From IMG/VR virus record IMGVR_UViG_3300043447_000100, positions 119,667 to 183,666 of that record: 64,000 bases of DNA. One strand, 5' to 3'. The first letter of the stretch is position 1. Every line of letters begins with the position of its first letter. Made by a program: the position numbers and the translations under genes. The notes beneath the pieces are model-generated. The model made no database searches. It was not told the DNA's origin and saw only the letters and a program-made list of their open reading frames with translations. This document shows positions 3,055-60,634 of the stretch, piece after piece. The stretch comes from a virus. Taxonomy: Duplodnaviria > Caudoviricetes.

Positions 3055-3321
3055 ATGGCATTAGATATCGTTACTCAAGTATGGGATATTGTAAAAGAAA
3101 CAATACACCCAACAGACCGCGAAACAGCGGCCGAGCACATCGTGGGAATGTTGATCGACAATGACTACTCACCGGCAGAAATCAAAAGTGCTTTCAGAGG
3201 CGACTCTGATTTTGCAACTGCCTTAAAGTATTACAACGATCAAGAATCTGAATACGAGGAAGACTACGAAGAATACGAAGAAGAACAACTTGATTTCGAC
3301 GACGAAGAAGATTGGGATTAA
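3055..3321 (+). CDS. Small acidic hypothetical protein
   Basis: GGAGG RBS; Asp/Glu-rich tail; between uvsX and uvsY. Confidence 0.7.
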   Translation: MALDIVTQVWDIVKETIHPTDRETAAEHIVGMLIDNDYSPAEIKSAFRGDSDFATALKYYNDQESEYEEDYEEYEEEQLDFDDEEDWD

Positions 3322-28645: not shown

Positions 28646-29854
28646 ATGAAAAAGCGCAATTACACACAAGACACGGTACGCCGATTACAAGGTAGTGTCC
28701 AAGTCGAACACACACTAGCAAAACGTGGAGCACAAAAACTTCGCCAACTACTAGCAACTGAGCCATACATCAATACACTTGGTGCTTACAACGGACAGAT
28801 GGCAGTACAACACGCTAAAGCAGGACTCAAAGCAATCTATTTGAGTGGTTGGCAAGTAGCGGCTGCTAACAACACTGCTAATCAAACTTATCCTGATCAA
28901 TCCTTATACCCAGTTGATTCAGTGCCTAAAGTTGTCAAGGGAATCAATAACGCATTCCGTCGTGCGGATCAAATTGAGTACTCAGAGGGCAATCAAACTA
29001 CTGATTACTTTCTACCAATCGTAGCAGACGCAGAAGCCGGCTTCGGCGGTGCTCTCAACTCATACGAACTAATGTCGGCTATGATTGAAGCAGGCGCCGC
29101 TGGTGTACACTTTGAAGACCAACTAAGTAGTGAAAAGAAATGCGGCCACTTAGGTGGCAAAGTACTCATCCCTACAGGACAGATGATTCGCACACTAAAC
29201 GCGGCACGACTAGCAGCCGATGTTGCTGGCGTAGACACAGTTATCATGGCTCGTACGGACGCAGAATCAGCAACCTTAATCACAAGCGACCATGATCCAC
29301 TAGACAAGGATTACATTATTAATGAACGCACTGAAGAAGGCTTTTACAAATTTAAAAATGGCCTTGATGCTTGTATTAGCAGAGGTCTTGCTTATGCCCC
29401 TTACGCTGATCTCTTATGGTTCGAAACTAGTACACCTGATATCGCACAAGCTAAGAAATTCGCCGATGCTATACACACTCAATTTCCGGACCAAATGCTT
29501 GCTTATAATTGCAGCCCTAGTTTTAATTGGCGCAAGTTTTTAAGTGAAGACGAGTGCGAAACGTTTCAGCGTGAACTAGGTGAACTAGGATACAAGTTCC
29601 AGTTTATTACATTAGCAGGCTTCCACTCCGTCAATCTTGCTACATTCGAACTGGCAGAAGCATACAAGCAACGCGGCATGGCCGGTTACTCGGAGATGCA
29701 ACAGCGTGAGTTTGCGGCACAAGAACGCGGCTTTACAACAGTTAAACATCAGCGTGAAGTTGGTGTGGGTTATTTTGACTTAATCAGCGAAGCGGTTGGT
29801 GCCACATCAACAGTCGCTAATAAGTCATCAACAGAAGCAGATCAATTTCATTAA
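28646..29854 (+). CDS. aceA: Isocitrate lyase
   Basis: [28 protein letters not shown], catalytic [14 protein letters not shown]. Confidence 0.96.
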
Positions 29855-30117: not shown

Positions 30118-30228
30118 ACAAGGCACCATCGAGTGCCCTTTTCGCATAATACAGAGAGATAATTACACACCATTTTTCATAAATACTTGACCTAACAAAA
30201 ATAACAATAATAAGAAAGGTTGGGGGAA

Positions 30229-32304
30229 ATGAAAAAACTAATTGCGTCCGCAATTCTTGCGGTGGCGCCCGTACTCTCATGGGCGGATAATGTTTTAGTG
30301 ATTGATCCTGTTTACAGTAATCTAGCACAAAACGTAGAGAGTAGACTTGTAGCGGCTGGACACACCGTTACTATCACTACTGATACAACACAGATTCCAT
30401 CATCTACTGGTTCGTATCAGCAAGTATGGGACTTACGTCCACAAACAGCCTTATCATCAACAGAACAAACGGCCCTATCATCGTTTGTAACTGGTGGTGG
30501 TTTTGCCTACTTTGTGACAGAAAACCCAGGTTGCTGTATGGCACGTAACAATAGTGTTGCGGCGCTTATCACGAATCTAGGCGGCGGTACAACTAACATT
30601 GGTCCAGGTTGGGCTAACAACGTTGAATCAAATGTCAACACAACTTATATGACAAGTGGTATCACGGTAAACTATGCCGCTGTTGCCGCTATTGTAAACA
30701 GTCAAGGTATTCCACTTATCAGTGACGCTAACGGTAACGTATCTGGTATGAGTTGGATTGGTCGTGCTGGCGCTCTAGGCAGTGGCGTGACAGGTACTAT
30801 TGTAACTGTTGCTGACGTAAACTGGTTAGATGCTACTCGCTTCAATGCTACAGGCACAACAGCACAACAGCAGAACGTACAAGCACTAGATGATATCATT
30901 CGTGGTATCGTTGCTGGTACAGTAAGCGGCACAATCAGTGCTAGTGGTAATGGTTCTGGTGCTACTAACGGCAGTGGCGGCGGTAGCAGTAACAACAGCA
31001 ACAGTGGTCCATGGACTAACGCCGCAAACATTACTGTAAACAACAGTGGCACTATGATTGATGGCACTAACAACGGCGTATTCAACAACGCTGGCACAGT
31101 TGGTGCGGTTACTAACAACGGCATCTTTACAAACACTGGCACAATGGCTAGTATTGTAAACAACGGCACGTTCATTACTAACTCTACTACCTTAGCTACA
31201 TACTCACAGTCATCAACTGGCAGTACAGTACTAGACTATGGCAATCAGCTAACAGTAACTGGTGCCGCAACACTAGACGGTAACTTGACTCTACTAGGCA
31301 CAGTGCCATCAGTAGGTCGTTATACTGTTCTAACTGGTAACGGCGTAACTGGTACATACTCAAGCTACACTGGTGCTGGCGTACTACGATACACACCAAC
31401 TGAAGTTCAGTACTGGGTATTTCCATCCCAGCAAACTCTACAATCACAAGTTGACACACAAGCAACAGCACTAAGTCGTCTAACAGGCTTATCTGGCGCT
31501 TCAACACTAGGTTCACTAGGCAATGATTGTGGCAGTTTTGGTGATAAGGGTGGCTGTATTGCCGTCAACGTGGGCAGTAGTAAGACTGGTACTGGTGACC
31601 TAAACACAGCAGGTATTACAGTATCAAAGAGTATTGACGCTAACTGGAGAGCAGGTGTGTTTACATCATCTAACTTGAACAACCCAAGTTCTGGTGACGT
31701 AAGTTACGCAGCTAAGAACCCAGCACTAGGCGTAATGGTGGGCTGGAATGAAGGCGCTGATGGTATCGGCTACGGTGTAGGAGCATCAGCAGTTGTAAAC
31801 TCTGGAGACTACTCACTAGGCGGCTATCGTGCTGGTGCTAAGACTCAAGCATATCAAGTCAAAGCGACATTCACTAAGCCACTAGATGCTACTACATTCG
31901 TTACGCCATATGCGGGTGTTCGTTATAGTCGTACATCAGTAGATGGTTACACTGAAGTCGGCCCTGTATTCCCACTAACATTCGGCGGTGTTACACAAAC
32001 ATCAACTGACTTGTTAGTAGGTGTAAGTGCTTCTACCAAAGTAGCTGATGGTCTAACAGCCTCAGTAAACGCTGGTGTAGTACATAATCTAGACTACAAT
32101 GCTGGTACAGTAACAGCAACTGGTGAGCCAGGCACATACCAATCTAATCTAGTTGACACACGTAAGACAAGTGCCTCACTAGGTGCTGGTCTAAGCTACG
32201 CTATCGACAAGGAAACTAAGATCGGTGCTAGTATTGGCTGGCAACAGAAGGGCACAACATCTGATATCTCATCCGTTGGTGTAAACCTAACTAAGTCATT
32301 CTGA
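30229..32304 (+). CDS. Autotransporter-like outer-membrane protein
   Basis: Signal peptide MKKLIASAILAVAPVLSWA, Asn/Gly/Thr passenger repeats, beta-barrel with TPYAGVRY and terminal Phe. Confidence 0.8.
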   Translation: MKKLIASAILAVAPVLSWADNVLVIDPVYSNLAQNVESRLVAAGHTVTITTDTTQIPSSTGSYQQVWDLRPQTALSSTEQTALSSFVTGGGFAYFVTENPGCCMARNNSVAALITNLGGGTTNIGPGWANNVESNVNTTYMTSGITVNYAAVAAIVNSQGIPLISDANGNVSGMSWIGRAGALGSGVTGTIVTVADVNWLDATRFNATGTTAQQQNVQALDDIIRGIVAGTVSGTISASGNGSGATNGSGGGSSNNSNSGPWTNAANITVNNSGTMIDGTNNGVFNNAGTVGAVTNNGIFTNTGTMASIVNNGTFITNSTTLATYSQSSTGSTVLDYGNQLTVTGAATLDGNLTLLGTVPSVGRYTVLTGNGVTGTYSSYTGAGVLRYTPTEVQYWVFPSQQTLQSQVDTQATALSRLTGLSGASTLGSLGNDCGSFGDKGGCIAVNVGSSKTGTGDLNTAGITVSKSIDANWRAGVFTSSNLNNPSSGDVSYAAKNPALGVMVGWNEGADGIGYGVGASAVVNSGDYSLGGYRAGAKTQAYQVKATFTKPLDATTFVTPYAGVRYSRTSVDGYTEVGPVFPLTFGGVTQTSTDLLVGVSASTKVADGLTASVNAGVVHNLDYNAGTVTATGEPGTYQSNLVDTRKTSASLGAGLSYAIDKETKIGASIGWQQKGTTSDISSVGVNLTKSF

Positions 32305-42694: not shown

Positions 42695-42771
42695 GGCTCA
42701 GTAGTTCAGTCTGGCAGAACGTCGGTCTCCAAAACCGAATGTCGGAGGTTCAAATCCTTCCTGGGTCGCCA
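42695..42771 (+). tRNA. tRNA-Trp(CCA) with U11-A24
   Basis: TCGGT-CTCCAAA-ACCGA; D-stem GTTC/GAAC; CCA. Confidence 0.92.
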
Positions 42772-46691: not shown

Positions 46692-47320
46692 TTACATTTG
46701 AAGATTGTTTATTAGAAATACCAGAACTAACTTATGATAGAACGAAGTTAGTAGAGGTGTTTGAACAAACAAAAGACTATGCTAGAGTAAAGTCTTTGCC
46801 ATGGGCCAATCCGGCGCTAAACGCAGTTGAAACTGCCAAAAACGTTGTGATTCAAAGTCACGACTACATGATGATGAAGGAAGATGAGCGTGGCAAAGGC
46901 ATTAACCTGCTAGACTTTCCATACATTCGAGAATTAGTTGATCGTTTAGACATTGAGATTAACGACACAAACTTAGATATCATGTGGAACAGACCAGGCT
47001 TTAAATTCTGGCCACACGTAGATAAATGGGCCGCATCAGTATTTGTTTGGCCGATCTTAGCAGACGGTGAGTTCAATCCCATTGACTTTTATAACTACGA
47101 TGGCGAGATAGTATTAGGGCGAGAGTATCGTCAATTAACAGAGAAAGATATAGCACTAACGCACAACTATAGTGACAAACATGCTACAGTATTCAACAGT
47201 CACTTAATACATGGTGTGCGCACGGTAAAGAATCATCGTGTGTTCCTTAGATTGAGAACCAACGAAGAATTCAGTTCTATTAGAACTCGTTATCTTAGTA
47301 AAAAATTGATTTTAATATAA
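46688..47320 (+). CDS. 2OG-Fe(II) oxygenase/cupin-like protein
   Basis: PHVD...IHGV...R facial triad pattern. Confidence 0.6.
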   Translation: MITFEDCLLEIPELTYDRTKLVEVFEQTKDYARVKSLPWANPALNAVETAKNVVIQSHDYMMMKEDERGKGINLLDFPYIRELVDRLDIEINDTNLDIMWNRPGFKFWPHVDKWAASVFVWPILADGEFNPIDFYNYDGEIVLGREYRQLTEKDIALTHNYSDKHATVFNSHLIHGVRTVKNHRVFLRLRTNEEFSSIRTRYLSKKLILI

Positions 47321-48280
47321 ATCAATCTCGGCAACAGCAGTTTTACCGCCAAAGCCAAGATTAGTTTTTAGCATCTTGGTGTATGTGAATGAGGTTGATT
47401 CAGTAATGATACGACTATCAGTGGCTATCTTTTCTCCAACTATCTTGTTGGGAAGTAAAATATTGTTTCGCTTACCATCTAGTGTCATAGCAAGTTCAAC
47501 AGCGCCACTAGCGCACATACAGTGTCCTAGATAACCTTTGTATCCTACAATAGGAATATTGTTCTTAATAACTCGATTGAAGTATTCATACTCGGTCCGA
47601 TCACCTACTGGAGTACCAGTAGCATGAGCGTTCCACAGTTCAATCTTATCATAATTGATGCCAGTGATGTTATTGACAATATCATCAACCGCGCCAGGAC
47701 TAGCAACTAAACTACTGTTAGTATAAAACGCATATTGTTGAACGACTGCTATAGGTGATAGAATGTGTTTTACTGTTGTTGCTTTGATTAGATATGCCGC
47801 AATACCTGTGCCCATTTTGAAACCTCGTGATGACGAGTCAAATGGCAAACCGCTATCTTGATCAAGCGCACCAAAACTATTGAAATGCCAGTGCCAGTAT
47901 GCGCTATTAACATCATCAGCGCAAACTACAATAGCAGGTCTGCCAGTAGCACTACTTAATAAGGTAGCAGTATAGAGTGCGTATAAGGAACTAGCACATG
48001 CCGCTTGAACATTTAAGATTTGACTGTTAATGCCTAGTAGAGCGCCAACGTGACTTACTAAGCCATCAACTGCGATATTGCGTAATTCACTGGGTTTGCC
48101 ACGTCGGCGGCCACCTAGATAGTCTTGCCATACACTTTCATCATCACGCTTTAGACCGTGTAGAGTTGAGATTACTAATGGGTAATCTGATTCAATATGT
48201 TGAGTGAATGAGGAATCGTTGAGTATAGATTCTAAGTCCCAAGTGGTAGTCCAACGATAGTCGAGAATTTCTGTAATCAT
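47312..48280 (-). CDS. Beta-ketoacyl-ACP synthase-like (FabB/FabF), shortened N-terminus
   Basis: AACASS, NAHATGTPVGD, KGYLGH, NLGFGG. Confidence 0.85.
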   Translation of the reverse strand: MITEILDYRWTTTWDLESILNDSSFTQHIESDYPLVISTLHGLKRDDESVWQDYLGGRRRGKPSELRNIAVDGLVSHVGALLGINSQILNVQAACASSLYALYTATLLSSATGRPAIVVCADDVNSAYWHWHFNSFGALDQDSGLPFDSSSRGFKMGTGIAAYLIKATTVKHILSPIAVVQQYAFYTNSSLVASPGAVDDIVNNITGINYDKIELWNAHATGTPVGDRTEYEYFNRVIKNNIPIVGYKGYLGHCMCASGAVELAMTLDGKRNNILLPNKIVGEKIATDSRIITESTSFTYTKMLKTNLGFGGKTAVAEIDLY

Positions 48281-48789: not shown

Positions 48790-48862
48790 TGAAGCGGCCG
48801 GGCGAGTATCGAACTCTCATTTCTGCTTGGAAGCAGTGTTTTTCCCCTTAAACTACGGCCGC
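48790..48862 (-). pseudogene. Degenerate tRNA-Gly(TCC)
   Basis: GCGGCCG/CGGCCGC acceptor, CTGC-TTCCAA-GCAG (6-nt loop), GTTCGA T-loop, ends TTCA. Confidence 0.65.
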
Positions 48863-52350: not shown

Positions 52351-52382
52351 ATCATTAGTGGGAATTTTATTTGGAGAACAAA

Positions 52383-52892
52383 ATGTTGAACCCCTGGATT
52401 CAAAACACATCGTTAATTGATATCAAGCGTGGTACACACATGGACGCTGGTCCTAACTCCATGCTGATTCAAATTTGCGATCCGCCTGGAGACTTCCCTA
52501 CCCCTCACTATCAGTTTGCGTCAGTTCATCAGTTTCAGTTCCTCGATGTTGAGGAAACTGATCATGTGATTGACGAGGCAATGCGTTGCTCTCATGATCA
52601 GGCACGTAGTTTAGTGCTTTTGCTCAAGCAAGCGTTTGCTAACAGAACTAACGTAATTGTTCACTGTCACGCTGGTGTTTGTCGTAGTGGCGCTGTTTGT
52701 GAAGTTGGCGTTATGCTGGGCTTCCGTGATACAGAAGTGTTCCGTAGTCCTAACTTGTTAGTCAAGCATCGTATGATGCGGGCACTCGGTTGGACTTATG
52801 ACGAGAATGAGCCACATACTATCAACGGGCAACAATACGAATATAGCAACGGCGGAATAATTCTGCCACCTACACACGAAGGTGATATTTAA
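52383..52892 (+). CDS. Cys-dependent (PTP/DSP-fold) phosphatase
   Basis: VHCHAGVCRS CX5R motif. Confidence 0.85.
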   Translation: MLNPWIQNTSLIDIKRGTHMDAGPNSMLIQICDPPGDFPTPHYQFASVHQFQFLDVEETDHVIDEAMRCSHDQARSLVLLLKQAFANRTNVIVHCHAGVCRSGAVCEVGVMLGFRDTEVFRSPNLLVKHRMMRALGWTYDENEPHTINGQQYEYSNGGIILPPTHEGDI

Positions 52893-53371
52893 TGAAGAAC
52901 AAGTGTTATGTATTAGTAGGCGTTCCTGGTAGCGGCAAGAGTACTTGGATCAAGAATCAAGATTGGGCTAAGGATATCCCTGTTGTATCTACTGACAACT
53001 TTGTAGAAGCACACGCCAAGGAAGTAGGCAAGACTTACTCGGAAGTGTTTGATAGTTATATGAAGGTAGCAGTCAGATTGATGGCTAACCAAGCCTTGGT
53101 ATGTCAAGCTAACAAGCTGGACATTATCTGGGACCAAACTTCAACTACAATCGGCGCCCGTCGTAAGAAGTTCAACACCCTGTTGAACGATCAATATGAC
53201 TTTATCGCTGTGGTGTTCAAGACGCCTGCTACCGAAGAATTGAAGCGCCGTTTAGATTCACGCCCTGGTAAGACAATTCCATGGCACGTTGTATCACAAA
53301 TGGCGGCTCAGTTAGAAGCAGAGCCACCAACAGAAGCGGAAGGCTTCAAGGAAATTTGGTATGCGGCCTGA
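52892..53371 (+). CDS. Polynucleotide kinase-like P-loop kinase
   Basis: GVPGSGKSTW, VSTD, IWDQT, R...R lid. Confidence 0.8.
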   Translation: MKNKCYVLVGVPGSGKSTWIKNQDWAKDIPVVSTDNFVEAHAKEVGKTYSEVFDSYMKVAVRLMANQALVCQANKLDIIWDQTSTTIGARRKKFNTLLNDQYDFIAVVFKTPATEELKRRLDSRPGKTIPWHVVSQMAAQLEAEPPTEAEGFKEIWYAA

Positions 53372-54023
53372 GGGTCTCGGATACTAAGTTAAGATGCTCT
53401 AGGGATAATGTCTCAGTAAACCCGTCTGGGCAAATATCCTTAGAGACAAAGCTACCTCCGAAGTTAGTCTTAATAGACTTCTCCCATTCGTATGCTTCCC
53501 TACCAGTAGAAAATAATTTAGTTGCGATGACCTCATAATCGCCATTCTTACGATGACCATAAAGTCTCCCTTGTAGATTACTTGATATTCCGTATTTGAT
53601 AAAACTATCGAATTTAAGTAGATAGCCGTGTGAGGGTAGATTCCATTTAAAGATATGTTCTACACAAGCCGGGCAGCCACCGCCGCGTAGAATTCTATTA
53701 GAGTTTGATAGCCATTCATAACCGCAGATATGCTTGAATAAAGTATTACTCTTAGCGTTTGTATAATCGCCTATGAGTTCAATTCCTCTATCTGCTATCT
53801 CTAAGTTAATTGATTCCTTGGTACGACGGGTACTATCTATAACGCAAGTTGGACAACCAACGCCGTTAAAAATTCTATTTGGTGTAGAAGTAAAATTATG
53901 GTTGTTCGAGCATTTAAATGAAGTCTTCGTCAATGATCCTAAGTATTCTCCAGTAATTGAGATACCATTGTCCAATGATTTAAGTTTATTAACGACAGAT
54001 GAATGAGTTAGCTTGGCGCCCAT
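53346..54023 (-). CDS. Homing-endonuclease-like protein (zinc ribbons plus GIY-YIG-like domain)
   Basis: Two C..H..GCP.C repeats; YLL..IKYGIS..R..E. Confidence 0.7.
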   Translation of the reverse strand: MGAKLTHSSVVNKLKSLDNGISITGEYLGSLTKTSFKCSNNHNFTSTPNRIFNGVGCPTCVIDSTRRTKESINLEIADRGIELIGDYTNAKSNTLFKHICGYEWLSNSNRILRGGGCPACVEHIFKWNLPSHGYLLKFDSFIKYGISSNLQGRLYGHRKNGDYEVIATKLFSTGREAYEWEKSIKTNFGGSFVSKDICPDGFTETLSLEHLNLVSETLRPHTKFP

Positions 54024-54105
54024 AGATATATTATATCATATTTATGATGTTTTGGCAATTAAAATGGTAATAATTAAAAACACTAAATAGATTTAGGAGA
54101 ACAAT

Positions 54106-54777
54106 ATGAAACGAGTAATTGAGATTAGAGCCGCAGAAGGCGGAGAGGATAGTAAGTTGTTTGTGCGTGACTTAGCAAACGCATATAAGAAGTTTGCTGA
54201 GCGTAAAAGCTGAGCAGTTCGCCTGATAAATGAGTATCTTGGCGAAGTTCACTTAGAAGTTCAAGGTACTGATTTATCCGGCTTAGAAAATGAAGCCGGT
54301 GGACACCGTATTCAACGTGTCCCGCCCACAGAGCGTAAGGGCCGTGTACATACAAGCACAGTCACAGTCGCAATCGTGGACCCTAGTGTGCCTCAGTTCA
54401 CACTCAACGAACGAGATTTGAAGATTGAGTGGTACAGCGGCACAGGTGCCGGCGGTCAACACCGCAACAAGCATCAAAACAGTTGTAGACTGACACACGT
54501 GCCGTCAGGTACGATAGTCACCGCACAGTGTCGTAGTCGTGAAAACAGTTATGCTCAAGCCCTGACTGATTTATCCAAAAAGGTTGTAGAGAACCTACAA
54601 TCAGTGTATAATAGCAAGGTAAGCAAAGATAGACAAAAGCAAGTCGGCTCTGGTATGAGAGGCGACAAAATAAGGACTTATCGTTTTCAAGACGATAAGG
54701 TTCAAGATCACAGGTCAATGAACGAAGCCAGCGTGAAAAAAGTATTAAGCGGCAACTTCGACTTATTATGGAAATAA
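54106..54777 (+). CDS. Class I peptide release factor-like protein (RF1-type PxT, no domain 1) with in-frame UGA at codon 36
   Basis: IEIRAAEGG..AERKS*AV..EAGGHRIQRVPPTE..GRVHTS..GAGGQHRNK..IRTY in one frame from ATG 54106 (AGGAG RBS); TGA at 54211-54213. Confidence 0.85.
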
Positions 54778-54778
54778 A

Positions 54779-54994
54779 ATGTATAAAGTAAAATGGAAAG
54801 ACAAATACGGTATCGATAGAGTTCATAATTGTATGTCACTCGCTGATGCCCTAGAATATAACAAGACAGTAAACAGACCAGGCACCTTAATCATAGGTGA
54901 AGGTATCGAGATAGTTGGCTCCATGGGAGTTGACTCAATCAAAGACGGACTATGCCCAGACGGTGTAGAATATAGTTGGAGAAAAAGACGATGA
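54779..54994 (+). CDS. Hypothetical protein
   Basis: Coupled ORF ending CPDGVEYSWRKRR. Confidence 0.6.
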   Translation: MYKVKWKDKYGIDRVHNCMSLADALEYNKTVNRPGTLIIGEGIEIVGSMGVDSIKDGLCPDGVEYSWRKRR

Positions 54995-55536
54995 GAACAT
55001 GGATCACCTCTGACCTACACTTCGGTCACACAAACATTATGAAGTTTTGCCCTCATACTCGTTCACGTTTCAAAGACGTTGACGACATGAATGAAACAAT
55101 GATTCGTGAATGGAATCAAATCGTCGAACCAGGCGATCTAGTTTACATTCTAGGCGACTTTGCGTTTCTACCTAGTGACAAGGCAGTAAAGATTGCTAAC
55201 AGATTGAACGGCGACAAGATTCTTGTTGAGGGTAATCACGACCGTAAGTTGTTGAATGATCCTGTGTTTCGCCGTTGCTTCAAAGAAGTACACCAGTATT
55301 TGAGCATCACATACAACAAGCACCGTATCTGTATGTTTCACTATCCTATCGCGGAGTGGGACCAAATGCACAGAGGCGCTCTACACTTTCACGGACACTT
55401 ACACGGCGGCAAGAGCGGCCTAGAACAGTACCGCGCACGTGATATGGCATTCGATGCTACTGGCTTCATTGTGGTAGAAATGGAACGTGCTATCAACGAT
55501 GCCATGACAGGCAAGATCAAAGGCCACCACGTTTGA
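54991..55536 (+). CDS. Calcineurin-like metallophosphoesterase
   Basis: SDLHFGH, LGD, GNHD, HYP, HGHLH. Confidence 0.9.
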   Translation: MRTWITSDLHFGHTNIMKFCPHTRSRFKDVDDMNETMIREWNQIVEPGDLVYILGDFAFLPSDKAVKIANRLNGDKILVEGNHDRKLLNDPVFRRCFKEVHQYLSITYNKHRICMFHYPIAEWDQMHRGALHFHGHLHGGKSGLEQYRARDMAFDATGFIVVEMERAINDAMTGKIKGHHV

Positions 55537-56777: not shown

Positions 56778-57284
56778 ATGACAGATATCGTTGAAAAGGC
56801 CAGAGTATTTGCTACGGCGGCCCACGCGGCTGTCTCTCAACTCCGCAAGTACACCTTCGAACCCTACATCGTTCACCCCGCAGAAGTTGTTAGCATCGTT
56901 CGCTCGGTGCCACACACTCCTGAAATGTTAGCGGCTGCTTGGTTACACGACACAGTAGAAGACACCGGCGTTAGTATCGAGACAATTCGTGCTGAATTCG
57001 GCGACAAGGTAGCAGAGTTAGTCGGATGGTTAACGGACGTTAGTCGCCCTGAACAAGGCAACCGTGCCGTTCGTAAGGCAATCGACCGTGCTCACACAGC
57101 ACAAGCGCCTGCCGAAGCTCAGACAGTTAAGTTAGCCGACTTAATCTCTAACACAAGATCAATCATGGCACACGATGAAAAGTTTGCCAAGACCTACTTA
57201 GCAGAGAAGCGGGCTTTATTAGAAGTAATGACTAAGGGTGATGCTACATTGATGGCAATCGCTCGTAAGAACATCGAGATATAG
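56778..57284 (+). CDS. HD-domain small alarmone hydrolase-like ((p)ppGpp hydrolase/Mesh1 type)
   Basis: AH..Q.RK..EPYIVHP, WLHDTVEDT, VKLADLISN. Confidence 0.85.
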   Translation: MTDIVEKARVFATAAHAAVSQLRKYTFEPYIVHPAEVVSIVRSVPHTPEMLAAAWLHDTVEDTGVSIETIRAEFGDKVAELVGWLTDVSRPEQGNRAVRKAIDRAHTAQAPAEAQTVKLADLISNTRSIMAHDEKFAKTYLAEKRALLEVMTKGDATLMAIARKNIEI

Positions 57285-57293
57285 GAGTCTATT

Positions 57294-57482
57294 ATGGATA
57301 CTCGTGTTGAAATTCGACCAGCAACTAAGGAATATCCAAAATATCAAGTTCTGGTTTTTGAAATGAAATTTGATACCATTCGGCAATCGTCTGGATGGGT
57401 GTTGAAGATGTGTAAAGAATACCGTCTACGAGCCGATGCTGAGACATTCGCTACTCGTTACGGCTGGACTAAGGAAATTTAA
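57294..57482 (+). CDS. Hypothetical protein
   Basis: AGGAG RBS; 62 aa. Confidence 0.55.
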   Translation: MDTRVEIRPATKEYPKYQVLVFEMKFDTIRQSSGWVLKMCKEYRLRADAETFATRYGWTKEI

Positions 57483-57483
57483 A

Positions 57484-58506
57484 ATGCGTAAACTAGCAAC
57501 TATTAGACGAATTGATGCTATCGACCCTATCCCGGGCGCTGATGCTATTGAAGTAGCAACAGTCGGCGGCTGGAAAGTAGTCGCTAAACGGGGTGAGTAC
57601 AGGCCTGGTGACATGGCTGTTTACTGTGAAGTGGACTCATGGATTCCATCTAAGCTGGCTCCGTTCTTGACTAAGCCTGGTCATTTCCCCAAGACATTCG
57701 AAGGAATCGAAGGTGAACGACTAAAGACTATCAAGCTACGTGGTCAACTATCACAAGGCTTGCTACTCAACCTGGATCATGTTATCCCTGAAACACACTC
57801 ATTCGGTGAAGATTCAGATGTGACAGAGTATCTTGGTATCGTCAAGTGGGAAAAGGCAATGCCTGCTCAACTAGCGGGCACTGCTAAGGGTAACTTCCCT
57901 TCACTTATCCCTAAGACTGACCAAGAACGTGTTCAAAACTTGAAGAAGGAAATCGAGGCTTGCCAAGGACTGACTTTTGAAGTCACTGAAAAGTACGAAG
58001 GTTCTTCAATGACTGTTTACCGTTCAGTCGGTGATTCAGGTGAGATGGAATTTGGCGTATGCTCACGTAATCTAAATTTGAAAGAAGTTGAGGGCAACAC
58101 TTTCTGGGATGTAGCACGTGCCGAAGACATTGAAGCTAAGATGATTGCCGTGGACGAGTTCTGGTCATTTGCTATTCAAGGTGAATTGATTGGGCCGGGA
58201 ATTCAAGGCAACATCTACGGATTGACTAAACCTCAATTCTGTGTGTTTGATGTGTACGACATTCAGACAGGTAAGTACCTACCGCCGAAAGCTCGTAGAG
58301 AGTTGATTGAGCGTATGGGCTTGCGCCATGTTGCTGTGTTGAACGAAGAATATGTACTAACACAAACAGTCGAAGAAATCATTGCTACTGCTGAAGGGCA
58401 ATCAACAATGGCCGCGACTGAACGTGAAGGCATCGTATTCAAGCAAGTAGATGGCGGTATTACTTTCAAGGCTATTTCTAACCGGTACCTATTAAACGAG
58501 AAGTAA
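57484..58506 (+). CDS. ATP-dependent RNA ligase, DRB0094/Rnl5-like
   Basis: N-terminal OB (I.PI.GADAIE, LRGQLSQGL), TEKYEGSS, QGELIGPGIQGN, EGIVFK, FKAIS. Confidence 0.9.
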   Translation: MRKLATIRRIDAIDPIPGADAIEVATVGGWKVVAKRGEYRPGDMAVYCEVDSWIPSKLAPFLTKPGHFPKTFEGIEGERLKTIKLRGQLSQGLLLNLDHVIPETHSFGEDSDVTEYLGIVKWEKAMPAQLAGTAKGNFPSLIPKTDQERVQNLKKEIEACQGLTFEVTEKYEGSSMTVYRSVGDSGEMEFGVCSRNLNLKEVEGNTFWDVARAEDIEAKMIAVDEFWSFAIQGELIGPGIQGNIYGLTKPQFCVFDVYDIQTGKYLPPKARRELIERMGLRHVAVLNEEYVLTQTVEEIIATAEGQSTMAATEREGIVFKQVDGGITFKAISNRYLLNEK

Positions 58507-59069: not shown

Positions 59070-59723
59070 ATGAAACAAACATTAGCATATCTATACAAGT
59101 GGACTGAATTATCAACAAGTAAGTGGTACATTGGTGTCCGCTTCGCAAAAGGCTGACATCCGAATGATGGTTACATCTGTTCTAGTAGATTAGTAAAACC
59201 TATGATTACTGAGAATAGTGAAAACTGGAAAAGAGAAGTTCTATGTATTGGGTTGCCGGACGATATGATTTCTTTGGAAGAAAAATATCTCTCGTTACTT
59301 GACGCAAAAAATGACCCGATGAGTTACAATCAACATAACGGCGACGGTGACTTTAGATTCAAGGGATATGGTGGAAATGACTCGCCCTTGAAGGGAAGAG
59401 TCGGTAACAGAAAAGGCAAAAAGAATACACCAGAACATAATGCCAAGAACTCAGCCGCTCGTAAGGGTAAGCCTGCGCCTAACAAAGGCAAGCCAATGAG
59501 TGATGCTCAAAGAGAAAAATTGAGAATAGCAAATACTGGGGTCCCTAAAACAAAAGAAGCAAATAAGAAAAGATCAGAAGCACTAAAGGGTAGAACTAAA
59601 ACAGATGAACATAAAGCAAATGTGTCGGCCGCTCTAACTGGTAAACAACGCCCGAAAGTAGTATGTAGATTATCAGACAGAAAAGAAATGTGTTTAGCTC
59701 ACTTCAACAGGTATGTAAAATGA
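59070..59723 (+). pseudogene. GIY-YIG/NUMOD3 homing endonuclease with in-frame TGA at codon 29
   Basis: AYLYKW..KWYIGVR..KG*HPNDGYICSS continues in frame into ORF 59202; NUMOD3-like basic repeats; TGA 59154-59156. Confidence 0.75.
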
Positions 59724-60634
59724 TAACAAAAGATTTGATAAAGAAATATGTGACTGATAATCCTAAGTTAGTATCAATGAAGAACTCGGCAAAGTATCCT
59801 GAACTATATGTTTTGAAATACAAAAAGTCAGTATTCTATGATAACACCTGGGATGAATTCTTGGAACATTGTAGAGGAACGGTTGTAGATAAAGATTTCA
59901 ATCTAATATCTTATCCGTTCAAAAAAATATATAACTACAATGTAGAAGCTCGTGCTCCTGTGTTTGACGACACTGATGAAGTTTTGGCTTTCCGCAAAGT
60001 CAATGGGTTTATGTGTTCGGCAACTTGGCACAACGGTGATGTGTTGGTTAGTACTACTGGTACTACTGACTCGGAGTTTGTTGGCTATGCTAAGGAAATG
60101 ATGACCAAGCATATGCCTTGGGCCGACTGGCAAATGGCATTCAGTTCAGCAGACATGATCGGCTTGACTGTTATGTTTGAATGTGTACACCCAATGGACC
60201 CACACATCGTTCCTGAAAAGGAAGGTATGTATGTTCTGGGCTACCGTGAAAATCGGTGGGACTCTAAAGTAGGTCACTCTGAAACTGTGTTGGACATCAT
60301 GAGCGATACATTCAAGTGCTATGTGCCAGAGTGCTACCGCGTAACAGTGGGAGAACTAAAGCGGATGGCAAAGGATGTCAAGCACGAAGGTTTTGTATTC
60401 TATCACGCAGATGGTCGCTCGGCTAAAATCAAGTCGCCATACTATCTAACAAGTAAGTGGGTTGCCCGCAATCCTCGTACTGACAAGTTAGTGGACTTGA
60501 AGCGTGATATCAAACAAAACTTGGACGAAGAGTACTACCCACTGGTAGATGCTATTCGTGCTAACATTGTTGAATACACAGCTATGGACGAGCAAGCTCG
60601 ACTAGCTTGGGTGCGTAACTTTGTGAGCAAGTAA
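59720..60634 (+). CDS. T4 Rnl1-like RNA ligase
   Basis: CRG..PFKKIYNY, KVNG motif I, STTGT, FE, EGFV, KIKSPYY. Confidence 0.82.
   Translation: MITKDLIKKYVTDNPKLVSMKNSAKYPELYVLKYKKSVFYDNTWDEFLEHCRGTVVDKDFNLISYPFKKIYNYNVEARAPVFDDTDEVLAFRKVNGFMCSATWHNGDVLVSTTGTTDSEFVGYAKEMMTKHMPWADWQMAFSSADMIGLTVMFECVHPMDPHIVPEKEGMYVLGYRENRWDSKVGHSETVLDIMSDTFKCYVPECYRVTVGELKRMAKDVKHEGFVFYHADGRSAKIKSPYYLTSKWVARNPRTDKLVDLKRDIKQNLDEEYYPLVDAIRANIVEYTAMDEQARLAWVRNFVSK

Follow-up and report, generated by a model that had tools for sequence, protein, structure and literature searches.

A release-factor gene in the jumbo-phage contig studied here is split by an in-frame TGA, which raises the question of whether this stop breaks the gene or controls the synthesis of its product. 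The window, the 64,000-nucleotide stretch analysed, is the final 64 kb of a 183,666-base IMG/VR viral contig with a completeness of about 52% (CheckV); complete relatives of the phage span 235–364 kb, and a megablast of the locus against GenBank phages returned no match. The gene lies on the plus strand behind a Shine-Dalgarno AGGAG (54095–54099), six bases 5′ of ATG 54106, and AGGAG- or AAGGA-type sites occupy the equivalent place upstream of the gene in relatives. Codons 1–35 (54106–54210) account for the opening strand of domain 2 and its long helix, with EIRAAEGGED at residues 6–15. The TGA, codon 36, occupies 54211–54213 in the context AERKS*AV and is the recoding site discussed below. 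Codons 37–223 and the TAA stop (54214–54777, the stop itself at 54775–54777) encode the remainder of domain 2, domain 3 and domain 4, with PPT at 54322–54330 (residues 73–75) and GGQ at 54451–54459 (residues 116–118). The TGA is the sole interruption of this frame, and the readthrough product has 223 aa. The ribosome-binding site, the start, the single break and the release-factor motifs (EIRAAEGG, PxT, GGQ) given in a preliminary description of this DNA were all confirmed by reading the sequence. So was its remark that the ORF list contains just a 133-aa tail: that tail begins at GTG 54376, because the 54 codons after the TGA contain no in-frame ATG, GTG or TTG.

Comparison with known families establishes the product as an RF1-type class-I release factor without domain 1, an assignment made by sequence and by modelled fold. 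The Pfam profiles PCRF (PF03462, 86.6 bits, cut-off 24) and RF-1 (PF00472, 71.7 bits, cut-off 35) both match, and the NCBIfam models for RF1, RF2 and PrfH score 205, 121 and 39 bits; the RF1 model (TIGR00019/NF001859) is matched at positions 107–334 of 347, its 205 bits standing against an equivalog cut-off of 400. Residues 87–314 of T. maritima RF1 match the product with E = 3e-42 (phmmer), codons 1–35 aligning with approximately residues 87–121. The ORF start, with its Shine-Dalgarno and ATG, corresponds to about RF1 residue 108, and domain 1 (~105 residues) is missing. Codon 36 falls opposite a conserved Trp (AERKGW in T. maritima RF1, AEARRW in E. coli RF1), which bears out the earlier statement that RF1 has Trp at the position of the stop. 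RIQRVPPTE...RVHTS aligns with RF1, and QRVPPTE, RVHTS and GGQ vary little or not at all within the family. A structure model built from 33 family members (pLDDT 90.7) has a strand at residues 2–9 and a helix at 13–33, and superposes on ribosome-bound T. thermophilus RF1 with a TM score of 0.91 and an rmsd of 1.8 Å; against RF2 the TM score is ~0.85. The 35 residues before the TGA, being the first strand and long helix of domain 2, are thus predicted to belong to the fold. Since it has the RF1-type reading elements, the product should act at UAA and UAG. It shares domains 2, 3 and 4, P-x-T, GGQ and the fold with canonical RF1 (prfA), which differs in having domain 1 and TGG for the Trp. Each complete relative has exactly one gene with an RF-1 domain.

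The comparison with PrfH made in the preliminary description holds for the missing domain 1 and not otherwise. Both PrfH (RF-H), which occurs with RtcB2, and the phage protein are release-factor homologues without domain 1 that adjoin RNA-repair genes, but the stop-codon-reading motifs lost in PrfH are kept in the phage protein. Identity with PrfH (TIGR03072) was rejected on a score of 39.2 bits against a cut-off of 166.65 and a TM score of 0.70 (9mor_A), and the adjoining ligases are of Rnl type (PF09414/PF09511) rather than RtcB.

Conservation and context of the internal TGA

Three IMG/VR scans yielded 240 loci, and removal of duplicates left 108 complete distinct genes whose proteins are 44–99% identical to that of the window gene. 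Codon 36 is TGA in 108 of these 108 relatives, which are phylogenetically related genes and not independent observations. Each contains exactly one in-frame stop, and the other Trp codons, two or three per gene, are TGG. Among 74 distinct genes, dN/dS is 0.099 over codons 2–35 and 0.101 over codons 37–90, and synonymous sites are near saturation (pS 0.63–0.77). As read from these alignments, purifying selection is acting both 5′ and 3′ of the TGA, and the conservation of the TGA despite near-saturated synonymous sites is far beyond chance. This combination of universal TGA, low dN/dS and saturation would not be expected from a neutral choice between TGA and TGG, from a pseudogene or from a sequencing error. 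The preliminary description had held that the full protein is made only when the UGA is read through, and had named close homologues with TGG as the observation that would speak against it; TGA was found in every homologue. With this universal TGA and with purifying selection on both flanks, where it had asked for dN/dS to be compared, the readthrough requirement is well supported. Dependence of full-length synthesis on the decoding of UGA36, kept by selection, is accordingly a reading that the comparative data strongly support. A screen of the whole contig for ORF pairs joined by one conserved stop gave mostly off-frame or antisense echoes of conserved genes; the release-factor gene alone stood out, its stop being kept in all three complete relatives.

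The sequence around the internal TGA differs from that at genuine stops. In 106 of 108 genes a GGN codon occupies position 35 (AGC, Ser, in the window gene), and the TGA is followed by A (69%), G (24%) or C (6%), with T absent from this position throughout. Of 245 genuine TGA stops of the phages, 3.3% come after GGN and 37% have T as the next base, so that the context of UGA36 is, on these frequencies, unlike that of a terminator. There is no CUU at codon 35 and no conserved Shine-Dalgarno sequence upstream of UGA36, and the ORF stays in the zero frame. RNAalifold detected neither a conserved helix near the UGA nor covariation in 50 sequences from −30 to +120, which implies that this set lacks a SECIS-like or stimulatory hairpin. 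Given no conserved stimulatory RNA structure, the level of readthrough may be just a few percent. An RNA element at codons 37–45 was considered and is not claimed: synonymous variation is lower there within the closer clade, but distant clades differ in bases.

Recoding devices in the wider family of short factors

A profile search over 1.84 billion representatives recovered many short (217–236 aa) RF1-like proteins with 35–50% identity, in which residue 36 is W, F, Y, L or I, together with many 180–187-aa fragments that start just past the gate. A scan of bacteria for the family pattern, with one genome per species, gave 80 loci that were sorted by recoding type. Sixteen have an in-frame TGA, seven of them at codon 35/36 (the isolates include Thalassospira xianhensis and Rhodovibrio sodomensis) and nine at codons 43–57, mostly also after GGC. 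About 15 have a prfB-type CUU UGA cassette, and nine, mostly from Myxococcota-like genomes, have an amber form in which a Shine-Dalgarno sequence is followed by CUU UAG. In total some 24 bacterial loci have +1 frameshift cassettes at or near the site of the phage TGA, and in eleven the gene is an ordinary RF1 of full length with TGG. Where the frameshift form lies at codons 34–36, the UUU read after the shift gives Phe at the position of Trp36.

Individual cassettes could be located within these loci. The sequence CGG GGN YAY CTT TGA CCT, after which the ORF goes on in the +1 frame, lies within domain 2 and occurs at 3061–3180 of each of L330, L351, L329 and L322, carried by Thiobacillus denitrificans, Novimethylophilus kurashikiensis, Achromobacter anxifer and a Hydrogenophilales MAG. 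Amber cassettes (SD-like GGAGG, CTT TAG C/G, ORF in +1) occur in L341, L354, L355, L358, L366, L367 and L369, at about 3090–3110 per locus and at about 1800 in L354. In a Hahella MAG (L295), codon 36 is TGG and a CTT TAG shift lies five codons later (3110–3130).

In a FastTree phylogeny built on the C-terminal 165 residues, with the gate left out, the 51 phage representatives all fall, together with all seven bacterial TGA36 genes and L295, in a single clade supported at 99%. The TGA36 design looks like a single old invention, retained in a family that, to judge from these loci, has repeatedly swapped recoding devices at this place. The analogy with the prfB frameshift drawn in the preliminary description is therefore apt in one respect and not in another: bacterial members of the family bear true CUU-UGA and CUU-UAG +1 cassettes, but the phage gene has neither CUU nor Shine-Dalgarno sequence and does not frameshift.

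Readthrough as a gate on factor synthesis, and its alternatives

UGA is terminated by RF2, and it is the stop codon most readily misread, by tRNA-Trp(CCA). We consider it rather probable that programmed readthrough of the UGA, probably by tRNA-Trp, couples synthesis of an extra UAA/UAG factor to poor termination by RF2. Termination by RF2 at UGA36 would release only a 35-residue peptide, and readthrough, most likely by near-cognate tRNA-Trp(CCA) inserting Trp, would give the full 223-aa factor. Were UGA termination slow relative to the supply of tRNA-Trp, RF2 being scarce or overloaded, more factor would be made; the yield would track the ratio of readthrough to RF2-dependent termination, and the gene would thereby report RF2 insufficiency. 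The additional RF1-type activity would take UAA stops, which end 56% of the phage genes, and spare RF2 for UGA stops (31–41%). We infer the decoding tRNA, the dependence on RF2 and this load-balancing role, and in that sense the termination-stress sensor proposed in the preliminary description, responding to limitation of RF2, is plausible.

Several features can be set against this proposal. The final stop of the release-factor gene is TAA in 103 of 108 genes (95%) against 56% genome-wide (binomial p ~4e-20, with kinship among the genes ignored), which makes the gene's own stop readable without RF2 and counts for the gate; three genes of the set end in TGA. The bacterial TGA and +1 frameshift devices of the family all respond to slow termination, which also counts for it, and amber (CUU UAG) cassettes fit an RF1-type reader that regulates itself. 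Left unexplained are the genes for tRNA(CUA), an amber suppressor, in two of the complete relatives, since at UAG this tRNA and an RF1-type factor would be competitors. They lie away from the main tRNA array, at G001:C1:174391–174465 (minus strand) and G002:C1:363408–363482 (plus strand), with none in G005. TAG is the rarest stop (5–8%), and no clear case of a TAG-interrupted gene was found next to the tRNA(CUA) of G001 or G002.

The alternative that survives best makes the UGA a timer: efficient reading would have to await expression of the phage tRNA array with its tRNA-Trp(CCA), so that synthesis of the factor would be put off to a fixed stage of the infection and RF2 would not be sensed. 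The window contains 27 tRNA genes, and the release-factor gene lies within or beside a tRNA array in all genomes examined (the window, G001, G002 and G005). The phage tRNA-Trp(CCA), the candidate UGA reader, is encoded at 42695–42771 on the plus strand (ARAGORN), and its D stem, GTTC...GAAC, contains a U11–A24 pair; A24 is the base of the Hirsh UGA suppressor, and U11–A24 is present in the tRNA-Trp of G000, G001 (two copies) and G005. In E. coli tRNA-Trp the G24A change promotes reading of UGA (PMC13092985), and stop codons have been proposed as timers for recoded phages (10.1101/2021.08.26.457843). By analogy with the suppressor, A24 in the phage tRNA could boost readthrough. However, the tRNA-Trp of G002 has G24 and yet G002 retains TGA36, and the +1 frameshift cassettes of bacterial family members at the same place answer slow termination independently of tRNA-Trp, which speaks for a sensor of termination rather than for a timer set by tRNA alone. 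We regard a timer as unlikely, though the least unlikely of the alternatives.

Other tRNA features of these genomes were also considered. The four-base-pair anticodon stem that has been linked to reading of UGA (PMC13092985) was rejected as an explanation, the phage tRNA-Trp genes having the ordinary 5 bp. A tRNA-like gene at 48793–48862 of the window (minus strand) has a perfect acceptor stem and T arm and a 14-nt anticodon arm, CTGC-TTCCAA-GCAG, that contains CCA; ARAGORN labels it tRNA-?(Gly|Trp), and it scores 26.9 bits with the Rfam tRNA model against a threshold of 29. It was rejected as a UGA reader, with its anticodon arm 3 nt short, its Rfam score below threshold and no counterpart in G001, G002 or G005. 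Inside the tRNA array of G002, at C1:227532–227606 on the minus strand, ARAGORN predicts a tRNA with a four-base anticodon, tttc, in an 8-nt loop.

The resemblance to prfB also allows true autoregulation, in which the short factor, alone or with RF2, recognises UGA and its own abundance closes the gate. As in the prfB (RF2) frameshift (SD, CUU UGA C), a class-I release-factor gene has an early in-frame UGA and a yield set by the slowness of termination; bacterial members of the short family carry the UGA-bearing prfB cassette itself, and the codon that gates prfB is read by the prfB product (PMC5009743, 10.1101/2024.09.24.614795). The phage site differs in several ways, being in domain 2 where that of prfB is in domain 1, and relying on readthrough in the same frame with no CUU and no SD-like stimulator. 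Moreover, the specificity elements of the phage product are all of RF1 type (the Gln of RIQRV, PPT, RVHTS), its RF1 score is well above its RF2 score (205 against 121 bits), and about nine family members gate with UAG, as suits an RF1-type reader. An RF1-type factor is not expected to terminate at the gating UGA, so the control would be cross-regulation, whose benefit is argued, rather than autoregulation of the prfB type. Autoregulation in the phage gene therefore seems to us improbable, somewhat more so than a timer.

Still less probable is that UGA is an ordinary sense codon here, through code 4 or 25 in the host or phage, a suppressor tRNA(UCA), or selenocysteine. Because the contig is about 52% complete, a suppressor gene of the window phage could have been missed, and full-length W36 database entries exist on short contigs. 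Against this, comparison of the genomes establishes a standard code in which TGA works as a stop. With code 11, greedy ORFs cover 94.6% of the contig, and treating TGA or TAG as a sense codon gains nothing; TGA terminates 46 of 149 greedy ORFs of the contig and makes up 33–41% of stops in the complete relatives G001, G002 and G005, and TAA or TGA together account for ~95% of stops. ARAGORN found no tRNA with a UCA anticodon in G000, G001, G002 or G005. A stop-codon-recoded phage (code 4, TGA = Trp) was rejected on these grounds of best coverage under code 11, TGA as 31–41% of stops and no tRNA(UCA). Selenocysteine insertion was rejected as well, there being no SECIS-like hairpin after the UGA among the 50 sequences folded. 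TGA ends genes throughout, including the three release-factor genes mentioned above, and a conserved in-frame TGA occurs in the release-factor gene only. The Jade, Lak and Agate phages likewise have class-I factors, RF1 or RF2, near tRNA genes that are thought to reshape termination in the infected cell (10.1101/2021.08.26.457843), but there the stop is reassigned genome-wide and the release-factor genes are plain, whereas here the code is standard and the in-frame stop is in the release-factor gene alone. A broken gene or assembly error, leaving only the 35-aa peptide, a C-terminal GGQ fragment or a pseudogene, is hardly credible: code 11 does call the 133-aa tail only, and databases hold many 183–187-aa fragments, but the same codon recurs in 108 independent assemblies, the gene is otherwise free of stops and frameshifts, both flanks have a dN/dS of 0.1, 54 codons without a start follow the TGA, and the segment before it is needed, in the model, for the domain 2 fold.

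Gene neighbourhood and meaning of the gate

The surroundings of the release-factor gene are partly constant among relatives. A gene for a Cys-phosphatase of DSP/PTP type, known from weak Pfam matches (DSPc/PTP-type, 21–23 bits), lies at 52371–52892 on the plus strand; a homologue is found within 3 kb of the release-factor gene in 72 of 80 related loci, which makes it the most constant neighbour. Downstream, a 71-aa ORF (54779–54994, plus strand) starts one base past the release-factor stop (TAA A ATG) and has a homologue within 3 kb in 65 of the 80 loci; it matches no Pfam or PHROG family. In many relatives the next ORF begins within a few bases of the release-factor stop, and the 71-aa ORF may be translationally coupled to the release-factor gene. 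A metallophosphoesterase is encoded within that same distance in 49 of 80 loci and an AAA_33 kinase in 19 of 80.

In the window an RNA-repair set lies around the release-factor gene (52371–53371, 54976–55536, 56778–57284, 57436–58506 and 59690–60634), with tRNA arrays on both sides. The set comprises the Cys-phosphatase-like protein, an AAA_33 kinase, a metallophosphoesterase, an HD-domain protein and two RNA ligases downstream, one of PF09414 with a PHA02142 OB domain and one T4 Rnl1-like (PF09511). In Novimethylophilus, a 737-aa fusion of AAA_33 kinase, metallophosphoesterase and T4-type RNA ligase (L351:720–2933, plus strand) is encoded directly 5′ of the recoded short factor, an arrangement that echoes the phage neighbourhood. 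These associations, and they are associations only, suggest that the release-factor gene and its neighbours form a translation-maintenance module.

The remainder of the window is varied. Just 5′ of the release-factor gene lies an HNH/homing-endonuclease-like gene (53346–54023, minus strand; phrog_681, DUF4379 zinc finger), which, as it occurs in only one of 80 related loci, is probably a mobile insertion. Other ORFs encode a ribonucleotide reductase, a DnaB-like helicase and a UvsW-like helicase. An isocitrate lyase, an enzyme of the glyoxylate shunt (28646–29854, plus strand; PF00463, 341 bits), is likely an auxiliary metabolic gene, and an autotransporter beta-domain protein (30220–32304, plus strand) may point to a Gram-negative host. 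A gene resembling beta-ketoacyl synthases lies at 47312–48280 on the minus strand.

Programmed low-level readthrough of UGA by tRNA-Trp has a precedent in a bacterial virus, Q-beta, where it extends the coat gene into protein A1. In Q-beta, readthrough merely extends the C-terminus of a protein that is already functional, whereas the present gene would yield nothing functional without it, and what is gated here is a termination factor. The Mimivirus/Megavirus class-I release-factor gene (Jeudy et al. 2012, PMC3521657) similarly encodes a viral termination factor that needs recoding, including readthrough, at internal stops. That factor is of eRF1 (eukaryotic/archaeal) type, in a giant virus of amoebae, and uses both frameshifting and readthrough; the present factor belongs to the bacterial RF1 type and to a lineage of tailed phages, and its gene has one UGA to be read. 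Borges et al. described phage-encoded RF1 and RF2 from recoded phages only, the genes themselves being in standard code (10.1101/2021.08.26.457843). Atkins et al. [quoted passage not shown] Full-text literature searches turned up no published account of such control for a bacterial-type release factor. The gate thus belongs among recoding-controlled release-factor genes, already known as a group, and its readthrough form in a bacterial-type factor appears, from the literature searched, to be new.

Before the sequence of prfB was known, an in-frame stop read by a near-cognate tRNA had already been put forward as a way to regulate a release factor; according to Atkins et al. (2016), no bacterial release-factor gene was then found to use it (PMC5009743). 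In a large family of phage genes, such gating is now seen to be strictly conserved. The amber prfB-like cassette of its relatives is a version unseen in a survey of 8160 prfB genes, in whose motifs Prince et al. found TAG to be absent (10.1101/2024.09.24.614795). Since gene callers split or shorten release-factor genes of this kind, annotation pipelines should flag them. As a broader proposal, which we advance tentatively and with somewhat less than even confidence, jumbo phages and many bacteria may share an undescribed family of RF1-type factors without domain 1, whose synthesis would be tied to termination failure by interchangeable devices (UGA readthrough, CUU-UGA +1, CUU-UAG +1) at one hot spot. 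The UGA forms would then act as cross-feedback, in which insufficiency of RF2 leads to extra termination at UAA and UAG, and together with RNA-repair enzymes and tRNA arrays they may form a phage module that sustains translation under host attack or overload. As a natural and compact context, the phage site lends itself to the study of UGA readthrough. It also makes a test case for how RF1-type and RF2-type termination affect each other, and gives a clue to the handling of translation by huge phages in infected cells.
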